Source of the DNA: Ostreococcus lucimarinus
Lineage: Eukaryota
Assembly: GCA_000092065.1 (NCBI GenBank)
Contig: CP000583.1
Strand: one strand, 5' to 3'
Length of the DNA: 64,000 nucleotides
The notes under the pieces were generated by a model, which had not been told where the DNA came from, ran no database searches, and saw nothing but the letters and a program-made list of their open reading frames with translations. The stretch's first letter is position 1, and each line of letters begins with the position of its first letter. Position numbers and translations under genes: made by a program. Below are positions 48,232 through 61,010 of this stretch, piece by piece.

Positions 48232-48371
48232 CGACCCGCGCGCGTATCACATCATAACTTTCAGTCGGCGCCGTATAATAACTGAATTTCCACCATTCAT
48301 TGATTTAACGACGCCCGCGCGCGCGGTCGCGCGTCGAGCGTTCAACACCAATCATTTGTCGTCCCGCGACG

Positions 48372-49490
48372 ATGTCGTACGGCGCGACGCCCGGCGCGAC
48401 GATCGATGCCGATTCGTCGTTCGGGCGTCGACGCGAGGACGGCGTGCGCGTGTCGCCGCGCGCGCTGCTCGGCGCGATCGCGGTGGCGTGCGCGGCGGCG
48501 CTCGCGGCGCACGAGGTCGGACGGTCGACGGGCGCGCGGCTCGGATTGAAGGCGGGGCTGGGACTGTGCTCGTGCGAGTGTCGGTGCGACTCGGACGGCG
48601 GCGGCGGCGGCGGCGGCGCGCCGGCGCTGTCCGTCGCGCGAGGCGCCGCGGCGAACATGCCGAAGACGCTGTTGGATGTCGAGGTGACGGATCCGCGGCG
48701 TTGCGGGACGTTGGCGGCGGAGCGTAATTACAGCGCGTGGGTCCACTACGACGAACACGTCGAGGCGGCGGAGAAGCGAAACAGGTGCGCGTTTTACGAC
48801 ATCTTCGGCCCGTTCGCCGGGGACGAGACGGACGAACACCGGGTGACTGGATGTTCGGTCCCGGGCATGACGCCGCTGGGCGGATGCGGAACGGTGCGAG
48901 GCTGGCACAGAACGGCGTCGCAGGCGTACGCCATGGGCATGGGCAACGCGCCGTCGTCTAACGTCTGTCGACAGTTCGCCGCCCAACACGGTTACGAAGC
49001 GTGGCTCTGGCTCTCCCCGGCGCACCCCGAAGCCGCTCGCAGGAACTCGTGCGTCTTCTACAGCGCTTTCCACTCGGCGCACGCGGACGAGCCCGGGGAC
49101 GTCATTCACGGCACCGCGTGCACCAATCCTCACGCCTCCGTCGCCAACGGCTGTCGCAACCACGCGCGACACGCTCAAAACGAAATCGAGGGTTGGGCAC
49201 ACGCGACGCACACCTACGCAGAAGGCTTCGGCAAAGCCAAGGGTCCGGGTGACTGCAAGCGATACGCCAAGCAACACGGATACCCGAGTTTTCTCTTCAT
49301 CAACGAAAAGCACCCGTCCGCGCAGCACCGTTTCAGTTGCGCGTACTACCTCAGCAACGGGGCGGGCGAGGTTGAGCCGGGATGGGGGCCGTACTCTGCG
49401 TCGACGCAAATCGTCAACAGCGGGAACGACGACATTCACATTCTCGGGTGCGCCGACGACTCGAAGACGCCGCTCGAAGGGTGCGCGTGA
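48372..49490 (+). CDS. Cysteine-rich secreted or type II membrane protein with three tandem copies of an unassigned ~85-aa 4-Cys repeat
   Basis: ATG at 48372. Hydrophobic segment ALLGAIAVACAAALAAH, then CSCECRCDSDGGGGGGG, then three repeats. Repeat 1 starts CGTLAAERNYSAWVHY...RNRCAFYD...GCS...GGCG. Repeat 2 starts CRQFAAQHGYEAWLWL...RNSCVFYS...GTAC...NGCR. Repeat 3 starts CKRYAKQHGYPSFLFI...RFSCAYYL...LGCA...EGCA. The shared pattern is C-x2-[FY]A-x-[EQ][HR][GN]Y-x-[AS][WF] ... R-x-x-C-[AV]-[FY]-Y ... GC. Confidence 0.6.
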   Translation: MSYGATPGATIDADSSFGRRREDGVRVSPRALLGAIAVACAAALAAHEVGRSTGARLGLKAGLGLCSCECRCDSDGGGGGGGAPALSVARGAAANMPKTLLDVEVTDPRRCGTLAAERNYSAWVHYDEHVEAAEKRNRCAFYDIFGPFAGDETDEHRVTGCSVPGMTPLGGCGTVRGWHRTASQAYAMGMGNAPSSNVCRQFAAQHGYEAWLWLSPAHPEAARRNSCVFYSAFHSAHADEPGDVIHGTACTNPHASVANGCRNHARHAQNEIEGWAHATHTYAEGFGKAKGPGDCKRYAKQHGYPSFLFINEKHPSAQHRFSCAYYLSNGAGEVEPGWGPYSASTQIVNSGNDDIHILGCADDSKTPLEGCA

Positions 49491-49690
49491 GCCGAGCTCG
49501 GCGTCGTCCGTCGTCGAGACATTTTCCCCGACAGACGTCCCGAGCGACAAAGTGCAAGACACACAAGACATCATTTACCACTACAGTATACTGTACATTA
49601 AACGAGAATCGCGGCACCGGCGCCGGCGCGCGCGGCGACCCGCCGGACGGCGTCCGCGTCGTGTAATAATTCCACGAATGAACAAAGAAA

Positions 49691-50941
49691 TCATCGTCGA
49701 GCTAACTTGCGTTCGTCGCTATCGATCTTGCCGCCGAGAGCCTCTTCGAGTTCCGAAACGCCCGCCGCATCGGTGTCCGTTCGCCCGCTTAAGAGGCTCG
49801 AGAACCAGTTGTACGTCGACGTTCCGAGTCCGAGTCGACTTTGTAAGCTACATTTCGAGTCAGCCATTTCGTCCGTGAACCGGTCGGAGTCGCAGTGACA
49901 GCTGTGACCTTTCGGTTCGTTGAAGTTCAACACCGACGTCTTCACCGGGCACAACCCAAACGTTTGATCGAGCAACGTCTTGAACTTATTATCTCGCGCG
50001 ACGGCAACGATGGTGAGCTCGATCCCAGAATTCGGTGTGGCGAAAATATCATCCCACGCACCGTGATCGACTCTCAAGTACGCCGTCGGCGTGGCCTTTC
50101 CATCGGCATCCGCGCTCGCGCCCGCGAGATAGACTGAGTACCCGTACTGCGCGACGAGCTTAACTTCCCCCAGTAACGCCTTACGCTGCGCCTTGCTCGT
50201 AATCTCACGTCGCCAAATAATCGTACTGACTTTTCCACTCGCCAAACCTTTCTTGAACCGCGCGAATTGCGAGCGAGAGCGCTTCGCGTCGTTGATCAAA
50301 ACCGTCAGCTTCGCCTTGGGCGACGTCTTCGCGATTTGCTCAAACTCCTCATCGAGCTGTCGACTCACTCGTCGATCGTTCCATAACTTCTCCACTATCG
50401 AATTGTCGTGTCCGAGATCCTTCAGCGTCGCGCTCAACGTCTCCACCGCGCGCTCGTCCACGTACGTCCTCGTCTCGCACTCAAACGCTCCCGCGTTCGC
50501 CATCGCGTTCACCCAAAATCCCATCTTCGTCGCCATCCCCGCGTCCACGCTTCCCCGCCTTCGCATCACTCTCGCATCGTCGCCCTCGCGTCCGGACCCT
50601 GGTTCCGGCAATCCGATCGTCATCACCACGCACGGTCCCGGCGCGTGTCTCGCTCGCACCGTCAACGCCAGCTCCGCCGCGATGAAATCCGCCCGCGCCT
50701 CCCTCGCGCTGTAGTGACACGCCCGGTGCTCGAACCACGATCGCTGCGTCTCTTTCAGCGTTCGCACGCACCGCGCGTCCAGCGCCGGGTCGTACGCGCC
50801 GCCCAGCGATACCTGCGCGAGTCCGAGCGCGAGCGCGACGACGGTGGCGAGCGCGACGCACGCGGCGCACGCGCGGCCGCGCTTGACGCCCTGGCGCAGC
50901 GCGCGCGAGCGCCGACGAAGTTGCTCTTTGCTCAGCCCCAT
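49691..50941 (-). CDS. Type II membrane protein (short cytosolic N-terminus, signal anchor, large lumenal domain); possible Golgi glycosyltransferase-like, function unverified
   Basis: 416 aa starting MGLSKEQLRRRSRALRQGVKRGR, then the anchor ACAACVALATVVALALGLAQV, then a 370-aa globular domain with 8 Cys (...CHCDSDRFTDEMADSKCSL). I recognise no signature. Confidence 0.45.
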   Translation of the reverse strand: MGLSKEQLRRRSRALRQGVKRGRACAACVALATVVALALGLAQVSLGGAYDPALDARCVRTLKETQRSWFEHRACHYSAREARADFIAAELALTVRARHAPGPCVVMTIGLPEPGSGREGDDARVMRRRGSVDAGMATKMGFWVNAMANAGAFECETRTYVDERAVETLSATLKDLGHDNSIVEKLWNDRRVSRQLDEEFEQIAKTSPKAKLTVLINDAKRSRSQFARFKKGLASGKVSTIIWRREITSKAQRKALLGEVKLVAQYGYSVYLAGASADADGKATPTAYLRVDHGAWDDIFATPNSGIELTIVAVARDNKFKTLLDQTFGLCPVKTSVLNFNEPKGHSCHCDSDRFTDEMADSKCSLQSRLGLGTSTYNWFSSLLSGRTDTDAAGVSELEEALGGKIDSDERKLARR

Positions 50942-51059: not shown

Positions 51060-51743
51060 CTAGACCGGACGGAGCGCCTCGCCCCTGAGCGCGGCCTCGC
51101 GCGCGCGACGAGCGATGCGAGGCGTTAAAAGCTCGCCGAACTCGCACCAAAACTTGCCCTGCTCGCGCTGCGCGAGACGCACGGCGTCGCGCTTGGCCCA
51201 ACCGGCGCGCCGACGATGGCGCCGCGAGCGACCGCGCACGGGCAAATCGCCGAGTTTCAACCCGCCCAGGGGATCGCCGGCGTCGACGGCGTCGATCACG
51301 CGATCCTCGATCGTCTGTCGGTGGCCGATCTGCTGCAAACCGACGAGCTCGGTGAGGGTGTTCAGATCGAAGACGCCCGGATATCGTCTGCCGCCGACGC
51401 GCCACGTCGGCGTCGTCGCGCACCGCGCGCACGTCAAGCACCTCGACGCGTTCCCGCAATCGACGTAGTGCTGTCGCCATCGCGTCGGGAGGAGCTCGGC
51501 GAGGAGTTGTTTTTGTTGCTTGCACTTCTCGCACCACGGCGCGCCGAGGAGCGCGACGTCGAGTCGACGCAGCGCCTGGCCGAGCGCGCGGATTTTGTCC
51601 CCATCGGTGTCATCGTTCGCGCGCGTCGCGCTCTGCGCCTCCGCGGCGCGACGCGCGCGAGCGGAGAGCTCGACGTCGTCCTTGCGCGCGTGTCGAGGCT
51701 CGCACGCGCGCGTGCGCGCGCGGAGATTGATCGCGAGCGCCAT
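51060..51743 (-). CDS. Thioredoxin-fold protein with a WCEKC active-site motif
   Basis: ...LDVALLGAPWCEKCKQQKQLLAEL... is a CxxC redox motif in thioredoxin-like context. It is followed by ...GRRYPGVFDLNTLTELV, which resembles the cis-Pro loop region. 227 aa, real ATG. Confidence 0.55.
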   Translation of the reverse strand: MALAINLRARTRACEPRHARKDDVELSARARRAAEAQSATRANDDTDGDKIRALGQALRRLDVALLGAPWCEKCKQQKQLLAELLPTRWRQHYVDCGNASRCLTCARCATTPTWRVGGRRYPGVFDLNTLTELVGLQQIGHRQTIEDRVIDAVDAGDPLGGLKLGDLPVRGRSRRHRRRAGWAKRDAVRLAQREQGKFWCEFGELLTPRIARRAREAALRGEALRPV

Positions 51744-51899
51744 CGCGGCGTCGAATGCGGGTTCGAACTTTCAAGCCGCGGGGACGCGCGCGGAACTTTG
51801 CGACGCGCGCGACGCGCCTTCGCGAGCGCGCGCGAGAGAGAACGTCCGTGAGTATGATTAGCATCGCACGGCGCGAACGCGCGCGTCGTTGAGCGCACG

Positions 51900-54800
51900 A
51901 TGACGCGTGGAGAGCGCCGCGCGCGCGGCAACGCTGGGACAACGGCCGGACGACGCGCGCGCGGTGCTCGAGCGCTGTGCGCGATCGCGCTCGCGCGCGC
52001 GCTCGTGGGTGACGTTTCGCGCTACTTTGTGCTCGCGCAGACGGTCAGCACGGGAGCGCCGCTGGTCGGGGCGACGAACGGCGCCGCGCAGGCGGTGCTG
52101 GACTTCGCGAGCGCGCCGGGCGGACGGTGCTCGCCGAACGACGACTCGAACACGATGGCGTGCGAAAAGCTCGAACCGCCGTCGACGAAGAATTACGCGT
52201 CGTTTGACTTTTATGTGAACGACGTCAACGGCGCGCGGTGCGATAAGTGTGGGAGGGAGTGTAGTTTGGACGGCGCCGCGTGGGCGTATTGCGGCGCGAC
52301 GCCGGTGTGGTACTTTGGGTTGTCGTACGGGCAACACCAGTTCAAGGTGCGAGGACTCGGTGGAGATAACGTCGCGGGGACGGCCGTGGTGTATGACTGG
52401 ATGAATGAAGAACCGTTGAAGGTGGAGTGGGATTCGGGATATTCCACGCCTTCGTCGTACTTGAATTCAAACGCTGTGTTGACGTTTCATTTGGCGTCGT
52501 CGCGGCCGAGCTCAAATTACGTGCAGTTTGAATACAGTACGACGAATGATTACATCAAGACGTTCACGCGATTATCGATTGGGGTGACATCGGTGAGCGT
52601 GACACCGAGTTATGGGTCGAATAGGTTTACATTCAGGGCGATATCCATAGAGTCGTTCACGGGGAAATCGCTCACCGAGTCTTCGGTGAACGAGATTGAG
52701 CTTTTGTACGTCGCCGATAACGTCAACCCCTCGTTGGCCTTCGTGAGTGGACTCGCAAACGGAGGAACGACGCAGAAAGGATCGATGGAGTACGTAATTA
52801 GCGCTTTAGACGTGGACCCAACGAATGGATACGAATCTGGATTGGCAACGCTCGACGTGCAGCTCTTTCGGCTGGATAACGGGGCAACGTCGCCGTCGCC
52901 GTTGCGCGCATGGACGACGTATCACACATTTAGTGGCGCTCCTGTGGACAAAAACGTAACGGTGACTTTAACAAACATCGCGTCGCTGGCGGACACGACG
53001 TATAAATTAGAGATTAGAGCTACAGATCTTGCAGGAAACGTCGCAACAACGATTGGTAGGACTTTCGTCGTGCAGTTGTCAAGCTTGGTGAACGTTCCCG
53101 ATTCGTCTGGTCTGAGTGCGTCGACCACAGAGCGGCTACAGACGACGTCTGGGGCGATTAAACTAGCTTCACAGCCATCAGATGGATCTCTCGTACCCGT
53201 TGCGTACGAGGTGAGCGCAATCGTCGGCGGCACTCTTGTGCTTGAATCAGCGACGAGCGTGGCTTTGGCCAACAACACGCTTGTCACGGCATCAGATGCG
53301 CTCAATGGTTTCAGGTTCACGCCTACGGCTGGATTTTATACGAACGATCAGTACGCGAGTACGTTTGGTTTTGATTTGAAGCCTTCCACGAGCACGTCAG
53401 ACTTGTCTCAAGTCGTCAATTTACCTGCGCATTCCACCATCACCGTCACAGCGACGAATGATCCACCCGTAGTGAGTGTCACAGCGCACTACAAGTTGAC
53501 CCCAATACACGTGTCGGACGGTGCGAACATTGGAACCGTGGTACGTGATATTTTAGATGCTAACGTCATCGATTATGATTACCTCTCGTCGAACAACACT
53601 GTTCCTTACGGCTTCGCCGTTGTGGGCGCCGACGAGACGCGAGGCGCGTGGCAGTTTTCAACGAATGGTGGTTCTTCATGGACAAATTTCAACACTGCTG
53701 GTGCGTTGAGTACGACGAATGCATTAATGCTCACGGCGACGACAAACGACCGAGTGCGATTTGTACCCACGGCAACGACTCTCCAGGATCAGTTCATCGC
53801 TTCCTTTGCGTTTAAAGGTTGGGATGGCACGACGAGCGAAGCGACAGGAGCCACTGGCATTGACATCACAACGAGTGGACATACGGCAACGACTGGATCG
53901 ATTAGCGTTTCAACCGTCACTGCCACCATTCTTGTGCGTGGTCTTTCTCATAGTTTATTCGAGCAAGCTGCACAAACGACAACAGCGAGCTCACGACAAG
54001 CGTACAGCGCAGCACTTTACAGTTGCCCGCCGACGCACCGGCGAAGTATTCGTATCCCCGTCGCTGCAACGTCGAGCACGTCCTCTTCTTGTGCGGGCAC
54101 CACGTCAACCGCTCAGCCTAAGATAAAGGCTTCGTCAGCTCTTACGGTCTCACCTCCTTGGACGATCGAGGCTTGGGTGCGTCGCGATGCTTGGCTCAGC
54201 GAACAGACGTTATTTCAGAATCCAAGCGATTTGAGTGCAGTCATGCTCGAAATGAGCGACGCAAGCGGGAAGGTTGGTGTCGTGCCGCCGTCGGGTGTGA
54301 GCGGTGGTACATTTAACTATGCAGCTCCACTGGGGACTTGGGTGCACTTGGCCTTCGTCATGTACGAGAACAATCATCCTTCCGCTTACAGCGCGCCTGG
54401 GGCGAATTTGCGCCTCATCGTAAACGGCGTCTTTCACAGCGAAATCACAAACGTCGGTTTCGCCATGCCACATGGCATCATCGGTGGTTCTGGTCTCGCT
54501 GGATTCTCGATCGATGAGGTGCGATTTTGGTCCATCGCCCGATCGACGGAAGATATTTACACCAACATGAATCGTTTTGTCGCGGGCACGGAGACTGGGC
54601 TCGTATCGTACGTTCCCTTTGACGCGGGATGCGGTAGCACCGTGGTCGACAGAGACAGCGGAAGCTCGACCACTTGGACGCTCGTATCTCACGAGTGGAT
54701 TGATGCGCGCATATTTTCCTGCGCTTCGTTGACCTCCGTATCGCCTGCAAGCGTGAATTTGTACAACACTTCAAATTTGCAGCTCACTGGCGAGCGCTTT

Positions 54801-57602
54801 ACTCGTCCGGCTTTGGGTTGGGGATCGAGCTCTGTCGCATCATTTGACGGCACCAACGCGGTTTGTATTTTCGGTTCATCGACTATTGGAAATATGACTA
54901 CAGTGGCCACAGTTGTAAACGACGGTTTGGTACAGTGTGCGCCTCCGGACTCGACGAATGGCATCGCTGTGGTAACGCCAGTGTTTTGCGACTATTCTCT
55001 TGGTTGTTGCACGAGTGAGACCCCTATTGATTATTATCTCGCAGCGAGTCGACCTTACGACTCGAATTACGTTTCTTACGGTGTGAACACACCACCGATG
55101 TATGATCAACCGGCGCTCAGGTACAGTGTTGGAGAAATCACATCAGTGATGCCTTCGACGATAGACTGGGCTCTCGGCGCCGTTGTGACTCTGGCTGGTT
55201 ATGGATTTTCGACGCCGATGGATACGAATTTTGGTGCTCAACCCCCAAAGTGCGTGTTTCGAGCTCGACTTCCGTCGAAGACTGCTTGGGCTACCTTTCA
55301 CGTTACAGATGCGGCCGTGCTGTCGGATAGTGTGGCCAAGTGTGAGTATCCTGGTTCTGCTGTGACTGCTTCGCTTGAAGCGCGATATAGCGTCGAGGTA
55401 GCGTTGGCATACTTCTACGACCACGTGGATTCGATCCATCTCATATCAAACGGATGGATCACAGTAGTAGTTTCAAGTTATACTTTGTACACCGGACTCG
55501 ACGAGCCGCTCACGGAGATTTCGGACTTAGGAGGCAGTGTGGTTTCGATCACCGCGATATACACCAAATCTGACACGGCGGGGGAATTTGCAGATCACAC
55601 CTCTGGACGGGTATCGTCTCTGGACGTGGCGTGTGCTTTCGGTACAGTGCACCCCGTTTCAGCTCGTCACAACGCATCTGAGACCTTTGAGTGCGTCGCT
55701 CCAGCGGCACCGAGGGCTGTGCCCACAGATGTCCCGCTTTCAGTGACTTTGTTTGCGTCGTCGATGTTCACTTCGTATTCGCGTCTCGAGCTTCTCACTC
55801 AGACCGGAGACATTTCTTACGTCGCGCAACCGGTGGTTTCAGCAATATGGCCTCTGAAAATCTTTTCAGTGGCGACGAATGCGCCTAATTTTCAGGTCAT
55901 TGGGTCCAACTTCCCGAGTTCGAGCACGACGTGTCAGCTCAACAACAAGTATTACTCGGCGACGTGGTCGAGTGCGAGTCGAGTGCAATGCAACACCGTC
56001 ACGAGCGGTGGAGCATCACCTGGTTTCCAAGCAGTTTACGTGGGTAACAATTTACTCAAGATGGACGAAGCTTTCTCTCCAGGTGACGCTCACGTGATGA
56101 TACGAGATGATGTTTACGTGGGCGCCGTCGTATCCGGCGGAGCGGCAGGACCTCTGTACGGAGGGTGGGCGCTCACCGTCTCGGGATCCGGATTCCTTCC
56201 TGGGGACGGGTGTTCGTTACACGCCTATCCAGGAGAGCTCAATGGAAGTGGTGATGATCCCACAGCTGGAGAGTTTGTAAGCAGCGCTTTGATGAGGTGT
56301 CTCGCTCCGAAAGTGGAAGAAAATTCGGTGAATTGGGATTTAACGTCAGACGGCGGCGGTTGGGCGACGCACCTGGTCGCGCGTCTCGCCATTCAGACGT
56401 TTTCTGATGCACTCGATAATAATGCAGTGGTCATGAAAGTAGTAGACGGTATCAACAACGTTAGTGCGGTGGCAAATTTGTATGCTACCATGACGTCTGC
56501 TGAGCTCATATCTACCGATCCCGTGTACTTGAATGTCGATGGCGGCACCTCCGTCGCCATCATTGCAAAGAATGGAACTGCTTCTCTTTTGAGTACTTCG
56601 TGTCGATTTGGGACTATCCAAGTCTTGGCAGATTGGGGTTGGTCGAACACTTCTTCGACGACGCGAATGCGATGCGTTTCACCCTCTTTCGGCGCGTACA
56701 GCACAAACGGAATTCGACTATCAGTGTCTCAGGGCGACCCTGGACATCACGGTGAAACAGTCGTTTCGGCCGCCTTGACAATGATGAGGCCGTTAGATGA
56801 TCTAACTTCAACGCTCAACAATGGTTTGAACATCGTTGGGCCATTCTCGTCGGTGCCAAGCGCACAGTTGGCGTTGTACGAGTGCTACATAAAGGGCGAC
56901 CGGAACTTCGTGACGGGGTCGTTCGAGTTGGCATCCTCACAGAACGAGGGCAGTTGTTCCCTGAGACAGGCTTCCATGAATCTCGTATCACGTTCAGATT
57001 TCGCGTTTTACACTACCGCGATTGCGATAAGGGGTGGTGAAGATGTTGCGTTACCCATCACGCTTCAATACATCGCGCCGCCGATTGTGTCGTCCGTCAC
57101 GGTGAGCGCCCGCCCGCCGCCTTACGGTTATCGACCGGCGTTTGCTACCAGTAATTGCACGACACTCGAAGATGCACCATTGCTGACGTACGATAACGCT
57201 CACGGTGTGTACGAAGGTCGACCCCAGACACCGTACGAAGTGGAAAAATTTGCCTTGTCCTCTCTGCCAATTTTCGGCGGCGCTTGGTGGCACGTCTCGA
57301 ACGCCATCGGCACGCCCGTGAATGTTTACGGTCGATTCTTTCGATCGCCACAAGACGGAGGAGACATTCGTATCTTATTTCAGCACGCCGGTGAGATCGC
57401 TTCGACCTCTGCGCACTTCGTTTCGTCAGCACTCGTGCGCGTAGAGGTGCCCATCGACGTCGACGCCGAGCACGAAACCGAGGTTCGCGCCTCCGTGGAC
57501 GACGGCGCATCTTGGTCCAGCGAGCGCTTCACGTTCATGATTCCAGAATTAGATTACGTCAACCGTGACTTGCAAACGGTCGAGCAAGGATGTGCGGCGT
57601 AA
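51900..57602 (+). CDS. Giant (1900 aa) secreted multidomain surface or extracellular-matrix protein: N-terminal Cys-rich module, Ig-like 'DxAGN' (HYR/cadherin-like) modules, LamG-like (Laminin_G_3) domain, and 5 or more IPT/TIG repeats
   Basis: Single uninterrupted ORF from an ATG. Signal-like ALCAIALARALVG. The Ig-like module is ...YKLEIRATDLAGNVATTIGRTFVV. The LamG-like jellyroll is ...WVHLAFVMYENNH...LRLIVNGVFHSE...GGSGLAGFSIDEVRFWSIARSTEDIY. The IPT/TIG-like repeats include ...SVSPASVNLYNTSNLQLTGERF..., ...SAIWPLKIFSVATNAPNFQVIGSNFP..., ...GAVVSGGAAGPLYGGWALTVSGSGFLPG.... No TM segment. GC drops to about 48-50% after the first 600 bp. Confidence 0.7.
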   Translation: MTRGERRARGNAGTTAGRRARGARALCAIALARALVGDVSRYFVLAQTVSTGAPLVGATNGAAQAVLDFASAPGGRCSPNDDSNTMACEKLEPPSTKNYASFDFYVNDVNGARCDKCGRECSLDGAAWAYCGATPVWYFGLSYGQHQFKVRGLGGDNVAGTAVVYDWMNEEPLKVEWDSGYSTPSSYLNSNAVLTFHLASSRPSSNYVQFEYSTTNDYIKTFTRLSIGVTSVSVTPSYGSNRFTFRAISIESFTGKSLTESSVNEIELLYVADNVNPSLAFVSGLANGGTTQKGSMEYVISALDVDPTNGYESGLATLDVQLFRLDNGATSPSPLRAWTTYHTFSGAPVDKNVTVTLTNIASLADTTYKLEIRATDLAGNVATTIGRTFVVQLSSLVNVPDSSGLSASTTERLQTTSGAIKLASQPSDGSLVPVAYEVSAIVGGTLVLESATSVALANNTLVTASDALNGFRFTPTAGFYTNDQYASTFGFDLKPSTSTSDLSQVVNLPAHSTITVTATNDPPVVSVTAHYKLTPIHVSDGANIGTVVRDILDANVIDYDYLSSNNTVPYGFAVVGADETRGAWQFSTNGGSSWTNFNTAGALSTTNALMLTATTNDRVRFVPTATTLQDQFIASFAFKGWDGTTSEATGATGIDITTSGHTATTGSISVSTVTATILVRGLSHSLFEQAAQTTTASSRQAYSAALYSCPPTHRRSIRIPVAATSSTSSSCAGTTSTAQPKIKASSALTVSPPWTIEAWVRRDAWLSEQTLFQNPSDLSAVMLEMSDASGKVGVVPPSGVSGGTFNYAAPLGTWVHLAFVMYENNHPSAYSAPGANLRLIVNGVFHSEITNVGFAMPHGIIGGSGLAGFSIDEVRFWSIARSTEDIYTNMNRFVAGTETGLVSYVPFDAGCGSTVVDRDSGSSTTWTLVSHEWIDARIFSCASLTSVSPASVNLYNTSNLQLTGERFTRPALGWGSSSVASFDGTNAVCIFGSSTIGNMTTVATVVNDGLVQCAPPDSTNGIAVVTPVFCDYSLGCCTSETPIDYYLAASRPYDSNYVSYGVNTPPMYDQPALRYSVGEITSVMPSTIDWALGAVVTLAGYGFSTPMDTNFGAQPPKCVFRARLPSKTAWATFHVTDAAVLSDSVAKCEYPGSAVTASLEARYSVEVALAYFYDHVDSIHLISNGWITVVVSSYTLYTGLDEPLTEISDLGGSVVSITAIYTKSDTAGEFADHTSGRVSSLDVACAFGTVHPVSARHNASETFECVAPAAPRAVPTDVPLSVTLFASSMFTSYSRLELLTQTGDISYVAQPVVSAIWPLKIFSVATNAPNFQVIGSNFPSSSTTCQLNNKYYSATWSSASRVQCNTVTSGGASPGFQAVYVGNNLLKMDEAFSPGDAHVMIRDDVYVGAVVSGGAAGPLYGGWALTVSGSGFLPGDGCSLHAYPGELNGSGDDPTAGEFVSSALMRCLAPKVEENSVNWDLTSDGGGWATHLVARLAIQTFSDALDNNAVVMKVVDGINNVSAVANLYATMTSAELISTDPVYLNVDGGTSVAIIAKNGTASLLSTSCRFGTIQVLADWGWSNTSSTTRMRCVSPSFGAYSTNGIRLSVSQGDPGHHGETVVSAALTMMRPLDDLTSTLNNGLNIVGPFSSVPSAQLALYECYIKGDRNFVTGSFELASSQNEGSCSLRQASMNLVSRSDFAFYTTAIAIRGGEDVALPITLQYIAPPIVSSVTVSARPPPYGYRPAFATSNCTTLEDAPLLTYDNAHGVYEGRPQTPYEVEKFALSSLPIFGGAWWHVSNAIGTPVNVYGRFFRSPQDGGDIRILFQHAGEIASTSAHFVSSALVRVEVPIDVDAEHETEVRASVDDGASWSSERFTFMIPELDYVNRDLQTVEQGCAA

Positions 57603-57893: not shown

Positions 57894-58361
57894 TTAGAGG
57901 TCTTGGCTCCACGTCATGCGGAGTTGGACGTCGTCCGGGTTCACGCCACCGTCCTTGGAGAACGGCACTCGGAGCTCGTACTTGTCCTTGGTGACGGAAA
58001 GCTTACCGTTCACATCTTGGTCGACTTCAGCCTTGACGCCGACGCCTTCAATGCCAGAGTAGTTGACAGTGGCCTTGTGCGTCGCCTTTTGGGAGTTGAC
58101 GTTGACAACAGACTTGACGCCGAGGTTGACGTCGCCGTTCGTGTAACCCAAGTCGACGGTGGCGTTTTGGCTCGGCACGTCGTATTCGACGGACGCGGTG
58201 ACGTCGTTGACCTTGAGCACGTCGGTCAAGTTGACCTTGACGGAGGCGCGGTCGGCGCCTTGCGTGTCGCCGTCGACCTTGGAGCCGGCTTGCGCGAGCG
58301 TCACGGTGACATCGCCGAGCTTGTCGTGGTTGGTGGAGATTCTCAAAGAACCAGCTTGACC
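57894..58361 (-). CDS. Four-exon gene for a 252-aa beta-strand-rich Val/Asp/Asn/Ser/Gly-rich protein (function unknown): exon 4 to stop
   Basis: The acceptor AATAG coincides with the in-frame TAG that truncates the ORF track. The exon encodes GQAGSLRISTNHDKLGDVTVTLAQAGSKVDGD...VDLGYTNGDVNLGVKSVVNVNSQKATHKATVNYSG...QLRMTWSQDL*. Intron 3 carries the GTGCGTAC donor and the GGTGACTGACGACG branch. TGTAA is present downstream on the minus strand. Confidence 0.55.
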   Translation of the reverse strand, partial: GQAGSLRISTNHDKLGDVTVTLAQAGSKVDGDTQGADRASVKVNLTDVLKVNDVTASVEYDVPSQNATVDLGYTNGDVNLGVKSVVNVNSQKATHKATVNYSGIEGVGVKAEVDQDVNGKLSVTKDKYELRVPFSKDGGVNPDDVQLRMTWSQDL

Positions 58362-59158: not shown

Positions 59159-59457
59159 GGTGGCTTCGTTCATTTTGTGAGTGAGTGTTTTTGTTTTGCG
59201 TGGGTGCGGTGGCGTGAGTGCGTGTTCGAACCGTGCGGACGAACGACGACGCGTCGATGAGTGCGGGCGCGATCGTCCCCGTCGTCCCCGTCGTTCCCGC
59301 GCGATCGGGATCGATATAAATCGTGTCGGGGGGTCAAATCGCGCATTGTACTTGTTTTTACGCCATGTACGTCGAAAATGATGCCCTCGAAGATTCCCTC
59401 GACGGCCGCGCGCGAAATGCTGACGCGGCATCGCGCGCCGTCGCGTATCTGTGATAC

Positions 59458-59520
59458 ATGTTTTTTATTTAGATTTAATATTGTTATTATACGTATATTT
59501 GTGCCAGCGCATACCCCCAC
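59458..59520. promoter_or_regulatory. AT-rich island (about 60 nt, over 75% AT) in the 820-bp divergent intergenic region between the beta-rich protein gene and RPL11
   Basis: catgttttttatttagatttaatattgttattatacgtatatttgtgcc is the most AT-rich stretch in an otherwise 65% GC window. It lies 450 bp upstream of RPL11 and 300 bp upstream of the minus-strand gene. Confidence 0.35.
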
Positions 59521-59977
59521 CCCGTCGTCCTCGCGAAAAAGCGTGGGGGGGTGGAAAAAGGCGCGCGCGGTCGGTCGGCGTCCGAATGTCCGAATGTCCG
59601 CCGAGCCGTCCGTGTGTGCGTCGCGTCTCGCGTTCGCGCGACGCGACGCCCGCGGCGCGCGACCGCGCGCGTCGGTCTTTTGTCGTCGCGCGACCGCACG
59701 AGTCATCATGGTGCGTTCGCGGCGAAGCGCGCGATCGATCGCGCGCGATGGCGCGGACGCGCGACCGCGCGCGCGACCGCGCGGCGTCGGTCGCGGCGCG
59801 GCGTCGCGCGGAAGCGCGGAAGCGCGATGATGGAATAGGGTTTTCGTGCGCGCGGTGGCCGACGACGACGACGACGACGACGGCGCCGGCGACGCGCGCG
59901 AGCGGTCGGCGATGGACGATACGGACGGTGGTGGATGTTCGCGTCGCGCATCGCGCGTCGATGGGGCGCGAACGGCG

Positions 59978-59983
59978 ATGGAG
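59978..59983 (+). CDS. RPL11: 60S ribosomal protein L11 (uL5) putative 6-nt first coding exon (ATGGAG)
   Basis: cggcgATGGAG|GTGATGG...GAATGACTGACGACGGATCGATCTTCGCGGTGCAG|GCTGAG. Splicing gives [11 protein letters not shown], close to the algal and human N-termini (M..KKAENPMR). The unspliced alternative, [20 protein letters not shown] from the ATG at 60004, is also in frame. That 53-nt intron is shorter than any other intron here. Confidence 0.4.
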
Positions 59984-60036
59984 GTGATGGAATCGAAGGA
60001 TGAATGACTGACGACGGATCGATCTTCGCGGTGCAG

Positions 60037-60567
60037 GCTGAGAAGACTGAGAACCCCATGCGGGCCATTCGCATTCACAAGCTCGTGATCAACATTTGCG
60101 TTGGGGAGAGCGGTGATCGTCTCACGAAGGCGGCGAAGGTGTTGGAATCGATCACTTCTCAACAACCGATCTTCTCCAAGGCGCGATACACCGTGCGTAC
60201 GTTCGGTATTCGACGTAACGAAAAAATTTCCTGCCACGTCGCCGTCGGTAACCGCGACAGGGCCATGACGATTTTGGAGAACGCGCTCAAGGTGAAGGAA
60301 TTCGAGTTGCTCAAGAAGAACTTTAGTGCCACGGGTAACTTTGGCTTCGGTATCTCCGAGCACATTGATCTCGGTATCAAGTACGACCCGTCCACGGGTA
60401 TTTACGGGATGGATTTCTACGTGGTGTTGGAGCGTCCGGGCTACCGCGTCGCCCGTCGCCGTAAGCAGCAAAAGAAGATCGGCAAGCAGCACAAGCTCAC
60501 CAAGAAGGATGCGATGTTGTGGTTCCAACAAACCTTCGAAGGCGTCATTTTGAACAAGGCGTACTAA
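60037..60567 (+). CDS. RPL11: 60S ribosomal protein L11 (uL5) main exon
   Basis: [172 protein letters not shown]... Near-identical in motif content to eukaryotic RPL11. Confidence 0.9.
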
Positions 60568-61010
60568 GCGATTGCAGACGCTTCCCGTAGCTGTAGCCCC
60601 AGTTCCCGCGACGCGCGCGCTTTGTAACGCCACGTCACGTTCGTTCTAAAACCCTCTCACCGCATCGAGCGCGCGCGAATCACGACCCGTTCCGTCTCGC
60701 GCCGCGGATCCCCGCGCCGACGCCGCGCGCCGCGGCGGACCCGAGCCTCGCGTTCGCCCCGCGTCCCGGTCTCAGACACCCGGAAAACGCCCGACCCCAT
60801 CTTGCGCGCGCGCCCGCCGCCATCCGCCGCCGCACCGCGCGTCGTCGTCCGCGCGCGAATCAGCGCCGACGAAGGGAGGGTTTAATCGCTCGCGCCCGCG
60901 CCCGCCGTCGTCGAGCGCTCCGCGCTCTCCTCGCGCTCGAACGCGCGCGCGCGCGCTCGAGGGGGCGTCGACGTCGTTTTATCGCCGGCTCGACCGCGAC
61001 GAGGATAAAC

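Follow-up and report, generated by a model that had tools for sequence, protein, structure and literature searches.

A very long reading frame in the tiny marine green alga Ostreococcus lucimarinus raises the question of whether it is one functional gene and what its giant product would do. The frame lies in a 64,000-nucleotide stretch of contig CP000583.1 (assembly GCA_000092065.1), hereafter the window, and a preliminary description made from the letters alone had taken it for a single-exon 5.7-kb gene. This claim holds: the open reading frame (ORF) is exact at 51900..57602 on the + strand, runs from ATG to stop over 1,900 codons plus the stop without an intron, agrees with the reference model and has full-length orthologues. 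In-frame stops are found 14 and 16 codons 5' of the start, and the probability that 1,900 codons stay stop-free by chance, computed with the gene's own base composition, is ~7e-35. The product is letter for letter XP_001416744.1 / ABO95037.1 / UniProt A4RUX3 of O. lucimarinus CCE9901, so the reference gene model is the same intron-less ORF; A4RUX3 is labelled 'predicted protein' in the database, and the contig, at 983 kb, is of chromosome size. The giant gene is a real, already catalogued and unstudied gene of this alga. Our best explanation, which as a whole we consider fairly probable, is that the ORF is a single functional gene in the nucleus of O. lucimarinus and that its product is a secreted, lectin/adhesin-like surface protein with a role in a pericellular coat, in adhesion or in recognition.

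Nine full-length orthologue clusters (1,848-1,955 amino acids (aa), 52-100% identity) came out of a search of 5.8 billion proteins; all are from marine samples, and the only other match was weak and bacterial. The orthologues align end to end, with a mean column identity of 67% and a common stop position. The one of O. tauri (XP_003078346.1 / Q01C66, 1,891 aa, 62-63% identity) has the same architecture and carries the automatic name 'Concanavalin A-like lectin/glucanases superfamily'. At two orthologous loci, L003 and L004 (64% and 52% identity, respectively), the gene order DCAF15 - WD40 - Nfu - unknown - giant gene - small ORF - RPL11 - cupin - MFS_5 is kept. Full-length, single-ORF orthologues in the same neighbourhood speak, at the sequence level, against an ORF made up of several unrelated genes. 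By the Nei-Gojobori method, applied to two closely related lineages (dS 0.29), the ratio of non-synonymous to synonymous substitutions (dN/dS) was 0.17 overall and 0.03-0.26 in every module, the sole higher part being a 48-residue N-terminal segment (0.61). Purifying selection acts on every module. A selection test against same-species metagenome copies was dropped since 3 nucleotide differences were too few. These differences between the reference strain and two metagenome copies (L001 and L002) are all non-synonymous: A738V, H1257Y and K1783E, at window positions 54112, 55668 and 57246 (codons 738, 1257 and 1783). Every orthologue carries Y at residue 1257, so the H of the reference appears to be a sequencing error or a change confined to this strain.

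The members of a more distant subfamily share 26-29% identity with the giant protein, are collinear across residues 68-1103 and measure 1,800-2,670 aa; they are single ORFs in a picoeukaryote of ~70% G+C content (GC), and one of their loci keeps DCAF15 and WD40 6-8 kb upstream. Given the full-length orthologues, the conserved gene order and the collinear distant homologues, the giant gene is old and has been passed down vertically, at least in this picoalgal group (Mamiellales). Two homologues of the ~70% GC picoeukaryote (L005 10001-17611 and L006 10001-17677; 2,536-2,558 aa) have an additional N-terminal region of ~430 residues, with a weak ALE2_N-like match, before the part collinear with the Ostreococcus protein.

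The order of the modules, as read from the sequence, is a putative signal peptide, three Big_13-type immunoglobulin (Ig)-like modules, an unassigned module, a 'GxWQYSxDGGxxW' module, a Ser/Thr linker, a laminin G (LamG) module and approximately eight IPT/TIG modules (Table 1). This domain content is largely what automatic annotation (concanavalin A (ConA)-like, TIG) already gives. The LamG assignment is confirmed by Pfam Laminin_G_3 (PF13385), which scores 35.8 bits against a curated cut-off of 27.6 (E 1.1e-8, model positions 10-150 of 151) and is precomputed for all orthologues; the signature IDEVRFWSIARS occurs once, at residue 871. Conservation is 75% in LamG, 56-73% in the modules preceding it and 40-59% in the TIG modules. 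A search of the Protein Data Bank (PDB) with three profiles gave one marginal LamG match (4dqa, E 0.046) and, apart from an Asp-box motif described below, nothing else. The LamG region of the AlphaFold2 model reaches a predicted local distance difference test score (pLDDT) of 55-78; with this low-confidence model, Foldseek returned pentraxins and the LG domain of PAPP-A at probability 1.0 and target-normalised template modelling (TM) scores of 0.56-0.59. A reading of the ConA-like module as a GH16-type glucanase was rejected, as no glycoside-hydrolase family was matched in the Pfam scan.

The profile of the N-terminal half, in an exhaustive search, matched 10,123 representative proteins, nearly all of them through three modules: the Big_13-type module, the 150-residue 'GxWQYSxDGGxxW' module and LamG. 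Many of these proteins are 2,000-7,600 residues long with up to 44 repeats. Ig-like module 1 shares 37% identity with the 'ECSLDGAAFAAC.SP..Y..L..G.H.F.VRA.D.AGN' repeats of one protein, P0068, which itself scores E 1.8e-60 with Big_13, and the profile of its region matches proteins with up to 44 such repeats. In module 2, the alignment to the P0068 repeats runs on from module 1; it has no separate Pfam match, and we infer that it is also of Big_13 type. The fragment of module 3 matches Big_13 (PF19077) with E 4.8e-5 and 24.2 bits, and Big_3_2 with E 0.01. The Big_13 gathering threshold of 27 is reached neither by this fragment nor by the whole protein (20.8 bits); the homology is nevertheless supported by the identity of module 1 to the P0068 repeats. 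Ig-like modules ending in RATDLAGN had been described earlier. A DxAGN-type Big_13 module is in fact present, but the exact motif occurs only once, at residue 373, and two further modules hold the degenerate versions HQFKVRGLGGDNVAG and NRFTFRAISIESFTGKS.

The 150-residue module is 34-41% identical to repeats of giant proteins, and its bacterial copies, at 33-44% identity, are spread over hundreds of genomes. Relatives were confirmed in 503 bacterial genome stretches; Planctomycetota, Cyanobacteria, Proteobacteria, Myxococcota and Chloroflexota, among others, are represented. Pfam and NCBIfam have no curated model for the module: the Cadherin_4, Cadherin_5 and tandem-95 models do not match the algal module, and the bacterial copies reach only E 0.012 with Cadherin_5 and, with tandem-95, 23.7 bits where 90 are required. 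A scan of the whole giant protein with NCBIfam matched no family. Judged by its relatives, this is a module of bacterial giant adhesins, and the likeness to bacterial adhesins that had been suspected from the domain mix is real and stronger than could be known then. Some bacterial matches reach into the C-terminal half of the preceding module (residues 394-521), which may be a degenerate copy of the 150-residue module; hhalign did not link the two. The 150-residue module also contains an Asp-box / BNR-like turn, STNGGSSW, at residues 587-594 (window 53658-53681).

The IPT/TIG assignment is likewise upheld, as Pfam TIG (PF01833) scores 43.9 bits over the whole protein, above its curated cut-off of 20.9 (E 2.3e-11). 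Taken individually, six of the modules give weak matches (E 5e-4 to 0.12, 12.8-20.5 bits). Profile comparison connects seven of them: hhalign links modules 1 and 2 (93%), 5 and 8 (85%), 3 and 6 (85%), 2 and 8 (35%) and 4 and 6 (32%), module 3 being linked solely to module 6. Module 7 has no hhalign link to the others and no family match. Most TIG modules hold one invariant Cys pair. The SIxPxxG motif expected in several of them is a different matter: the strict S[IV]xPxxG pattern matches a single time, in an N-terminal Ig-like module. No tandem DNA repeats were found inside the gene, so the TIG and other modules would be old duplicates. Module 8 carries a PPPYGYRP insert and a second Asp-box / BNR-like turn, SVDDGASW (residues 1865-1872, window 57492-57515), in a host module unrelated to the 150-residue one; this turn is the source of the only PDB sequence matches to sialidase BNR repeats (E ~0.6).

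The protein was modelled with AlphaFold2 in two halves from 7-sequence alignments. Both models are all-beta, with mean pLDDT values of 45 and 41 that are too low for domain boundaries. The model of the C-terminal half (mean pLDDT 41), compared with the PDB by Foldseek, matched the IPT domains of plexin A2/A4, MET, EBF1 and NFAT; the EBF1 IPT/TIG domain reached a TM score of 0.76 with a root mean square deviation (rmsd) of 3.1 Å, and NFAT1 RHD-C a TM score of 0.66.

We then considered whether the protein would leave the cell. Residues 1-47 are read as a signal peptide, with cleavage judged by eye from the alignment and the distant homologues. Pairwise orthologue identity is only 25% in this region. 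In all orthologues small residues stand at -3/-1, and conservation sets in right after them with VSTGAPL; in the distant homologues the N-terminus is that of a textbook signal peptide, MRRGATLRFLALALALASCAAPAEVGAQA. As the preliminary description held, there is no transmembrane-grade segment in the 1,900 residues, the top 19-residue Kyte-Doolittle window (1.63) lying inside a conserved beta-rich module. The polar tail, ELDYVNRDLQTVEQGCAA, has a Cys kept in 7 of the 9 orthologues and neither a hydrophobic anchor nor a glycosylphosphatidylinositol-type signal. In the orthologue alignment 25 Cys are invariant, mostly one pair per TIG module, and the protein contains 11 N-x-S/T sequons. Ser and Thr make up 21.5% of it; many Ser/Thr-rich linkers had been announced, and only one poorly conserved, length-variable linker is found (residues 683-744, 35% Ser + Thr). 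From the N-terminal pattern in the orthologues, the classical signal peptide in the distant homologues, the Cys conservation, the sequons and the missing transmembrane segment, we infer a protein of ~200 kDa that is probably secreted, disulfide-bonded and glycosylated, and built nearly wholly of beta-sandwich modules.

Under the explanation that we favour, the giant protein would enter the secretory pathway, be released onto the surface of the naked cell and work there as an extended binding protein, rather than as an enzyme or as a receptor signalling across the membrane. The LamG and N-terminal adhesin-type modules, which are the most conserved, would form a head binding a glycan or protein ligand, and the faster-evolving TIG array a stalk, acting as a spacer or as an attachment/oligomerisation arm; this division follows the conservation values given above. 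Adhesion or recognition, as proposed at the outset, stays the best functional guess. Several points weigh against it. Every single TIG module scores under the Pfam threshold of 20.9, and the fold matches lend weak support, because the AlphaFold models are poor. The hydrophobic N-terminal stretch of the O. lucimarinus protein includes an Arg, and it could be an uncleaved signal anchor instead. Without an anchor, the protein would have no evident means of retention at the cell surface. We found no paper citing A4RUX3 or Q01C66 by any of their accessions, and no experimental, expression or proteomic datum for A4RUX3; the literature on Ostreococcus together with TIG, laminin G, adhesion or secretome yielded nothing about A4RUX3.

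Table 1. Features of the giant gene and its product, with the evidence for each.
Feature	Residues	Window position	Strand	Evidence
Whole gene: 1,900 codons + stop, one exon		51900..57602	+	ORF, reference model, orthologues, dN/dS
Arg-rich N-terminus, then hydrophobic stretch (putative signal peptide)	1-47	51900..52040	+	Orthologue alignment, conservation
Conserved start of the predicted mature protein, two invariant Cys, no family matched	48-95	52041..52184	+	Alignment, conservation
Ig-like module 1, Big_13 type, pattern CSLDG..W..C..P..Y..L..G.H.F.VR, four invariant Cys	96-172	52185..52415	+	Identity to P0068 repeats, profile matches
Ig-like module 2, degenerate terminal motif	173-276	52416..52727	+	Register and pattern of next Big_13-type repeat
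Ig-like module 3, sole exact RATDLAGN	277-393	52728..53078	+	Pfam Big_13, Big_3_2
Beta-rich module ending TNDPP, 73% conserved, no family	394-521	53079..53462	+	Conservation
150-residue 'VNDAP...GxWQYSxDGGxxW...RFxP...WD' module	522-682	53463..53945	+	Profile searches, bacterial copies
Sole true linker, 42% conserved, invariant CPP	683-744	53946..54131	+	Alignment, composition, conservation
LamG / ConA-like jellyroll, top conservation	745-936	54132..54707	+	Pfam, conservation, Foldseek
Array of ~8 divergent IPT/TIG-like modules (approximate boundaries 937-1048, 1077-1194, 1195-1308, 1309-1402, 1403-1530, 1531-1632, 1633-1726, 1727-1884)	937-1884	54708..57551	+	Pfam TIG, hhalign, Foldseek
Short polar tail	1885-1900 + stop	57552..57602	+	Sequence, alignment

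Among the competing explanations, the one that fares best, although we hold it to be unlikely, is that of a surface molecule in an arms race, either on the host side of prasinovirus infection, as attachment factor or decoy, or in the recognition of gametes. A large exposed surface protein is of a type usable by a virus, and prasinovirus genomes have hypervariable adhesion and ConA-like lectin genes that are thought to mediate host recognition (PMC12906663). However, no module has a raised dN/dS, all being at or below 0.26 save the 48-residue segment, and the divergence between species (~63-67% identity) is unremarkable. Viral contigs searched with the N-terminal and LamG profiles contained no relatives, so there is no link to the prasinovirus ConA-like genes, and the viral structure matches are at fold level only.

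If a giant adhesin gene had recently been acquired from a bacterium by horizontal transfer, both a low GC and the bacterial-type modules would be explained; we regard this as quite improbable. Base composition had been singled out at the beginning: the gene, with a GC of 0.544, does lie below the adjacent genes (0.60-0.71) and its own initial 600 nt (0.642), but this is not distinctive. Long genes of the same window are equally low or lower, namely VPS15 (0.542; GC at third codon positions (GC3) 0.591), the XPB helicase (0.527; GC3 0.608) and a 1,057-aa ORF (0.489), and in high-GC relatives the giant gene matches its flanks. Low GC was therefore rejected as a sign of foreign origin. In favour of the acquisition, relatives of the Big_13-type and 'GxWQYSxDGGxxW' modules run into the thousands among giant multi-repeat proteins; those confirmed as bacterial, at 33-44% identity, belong to Planctomycetota, Cyanobacteria, Proteobacteria, Myxococcota and other phyla. 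Yet, down to 52% identity, the orthologues of different Ostreococcus lineages keep one and the same eukaryotic gene neighbourhood, the collinear 26-29% identical homologue of the ~70% GC picoeukaryote has DCAF15 and WD40 nearby, and no bacterial protein with the whole architecture was found. The conserved synteny disfavours a recent transfer.

An ancient acquisition of modules, before the radiation of the Mamiellales, is possible given the bacterial character of the N-terminal modules. As a doubtful but more far-reaching conjecture, a Mamiellales ancestor may have joined captured bacterial giant-adhesin modules (Big_13-type Ig, 'GxWQYSxDGGxxW' and LamG_3) to a stalk of eukaryotic IPT/TIG modules. 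This would have given a lineage-specific secreted lectin-adhesin, kept for hundreds of millions of years by the smallest free-living eukaryotes and perhaps tethering partner bacteria or particles, or forming a pericellular layer of the 'naked' picoalga. We also observed that the first ~600 nt (window 51900-52500; GC 0.64, GC3 0.77) are far richer in GC than the rest of the gene, and that the proportion of synonymous differences (pS) to the L003 orthologue is 0.43-0.58 there and 0.67-0.91 further downstream, as if the 5' coding region might be under some additional constraint.

A structural part of scales or of a cell wall, the other role first proposed, is very unlikely. A secreted, Cys-rich, Ser/Thr-rich modular protein would suit it, and glycoproteins associated with scales occur in other prasinophytes (PMC3491373). 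However, Ostreococcus is naked, scales being absent from Ostreococcus and Micromonas (PMC3491373), and the gene is nevertheless under purifying selection there. The protein also lacks hydroxyproline-rich Ser-Pro(n) motifs, with one SPP and one PPP in 1,900 residues. Repeated Ser-Pro(3-5) motifs are typical of green-algal hydroxyproline-rich wall glycoproteins of the extensin / pherophorin type. Finally, a membrane receptor like fibrocystin (PKHD1) or the plexins, which the long IPT/TIG array and the plexin ectodomains as best solved-structure matches might recall, can hardly be credited and is set aside because its defining domains (no G8, PbH1, Sema or PSI in the Pfam scan) and a transmembrane segment are missing, so that the plexin/fibrocystin-like mix described earlier reduces to a likeness of shared domains: there is no cytoplasmic part, Ostreococcus has no cilium, the plexin matches (rmsd 18-32 Å) reflect tandem Ig-like arrays only, and a hidden downstream transmembrane exon is disfavoured by the stop position conserved across orthologues.

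Around the giant gene, the window carries housekeeping genes of a eukaryote (VPS15 kinase, XPB helicase, HAT1, a bromodomain protein, DCAF15, Nfu, HVA22 and an MFS_5 transporter); no tRNA gene was detected. Head-to-head with the giant gene, 156 bp away, lies a 227-aa ORF (51060-51743, - strand) with a thioredoxin-like WCEKC (CxxC) motif and no Pfam match. It is conserved at 71%, 50% and 47% in L003, L004 and L005, more than the overlapping + frame, and it might serve the disulfide-rich secreted protein as a redox partner or simply be adjacent to its gene. Between the two ORFs, the 156-bp divergent promoter region contains an imperfect tandem repeat (51785-51834, period 21, 2.4 copies, CGCGCGCGCAACTTCGCGAG). 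Further upstream, between Nfu and a conserved 416-aa gene (49691-50941), a segment of ~1.3 kb and 67% GC (48342-49574) has long ORFs on both strands (410 aa on - and 372 aa on +) without a Pfam match; tblastn found no counterpart of it at either orthologous locus (L003, L004), and the segment could be an insertion or a gene peculiar to this species.

Directly downstream of the giant gene, a 150-aa ORF (57894-58346, - strand; no Pfam match) is conserved at 83% in L003 and 72% in L004. It is conserved more than the overlapping + frame and is apparently a real gene. Another ORF, of 487 aa and started by GTG (59170-60633, - strand), has no Pfam match either. At the syntenic position in L003, ribosomal protein L5/uL5 (RPL11) is called in three pieces on the + strand, which suggests an intron-split RPL11 gene; if this is so, the 487-aa ORF is probably spurious.

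The Ostreococcus genome is among the most compact of eukaryotic genomes. That it keeps a 5.7-kb gene for a predicted secreted protein under purifying selection suggests that the giant protein is probably important at the surface of a cell described as uncovered. Should its ligand be found, the protein would offer a molecular handle on the interactions of picoalgae with bacteria, viruses, particles and each other, and would show that bacterial adhesin modules were reused in a eukaryote.

With regard to known systems, O. tauri Q01C66 is a true orthologue in which the species is the sole difference; its name reflects the LamG superfamily match only, and it is likewise uncharacterised. Laminin LG, pentraxins and the PAPP-A LG domain share with the algal protein the Laminin_G_3 match of residues 745-936 and the superposition, on pentraxins, of the low-confidence model, whereas the algal LamG is 10-16% identical to them and set in an unrelated architecture. 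The Chlamydomonas mastigoneme protein Mst1 (PDB 9b4h, 8wa2) is a green-algal extracellular protein of ~1,900 residues with tandem Ig-like domains and was matched by both model halves. This likeness was rejected as a generic tandem-Ig match: the rmsd is 42-61 Å, the PDB profile searches found no sequence similarity, and Ostreococcus has no flagellum. Fibrocystin/PKHD1, PKHD1L1, the plexins and MET have tandem IPT/TIG domains in an extracellular protein, as the algal protein is predicted to have, but the latter is without their G8, PbH1, Sema, PSI, transmembrane or cytoplasmic domains.

The bacterial giant repetitive adhesins (Big_13-type, cadherin-like/'VNDAP', LamG_3; for example, P0060-P0208), with SiiE of Salmonella as a structural analogue among them, share their module families with the N-terminal 640 residues at 33-44% identity. 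LamG_3 recurs there too, and both would be extended, all-beta, non-enzymatic extracellular rods. Unlike the adhesins, the algal protein is eukaryotic with a predicted endoplasmic reticulum-type signal peptide, has each module 1-3 times instead of 10-44 times, and is fused to a long IPT/TIG array. In contrast to the adhesins of the repeats-in-toxin (RTX) / type 1 secretion system (T1SS) kind, which are marked by GGxGxD nonapeptide repeats at the C-terminus, it has no GGxGxD anywhere and no RTX Pfam match. No LPXTG sorting motif is visible in its C-terminal tail. Its combination of modules is absent from all bacterial proteins returned by these searches. By its predicted modules, the giant protein of O. 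lucimarinus joins a known kind, that of the secreted mosaic beta-sandwich adhesion/lectin proteins.

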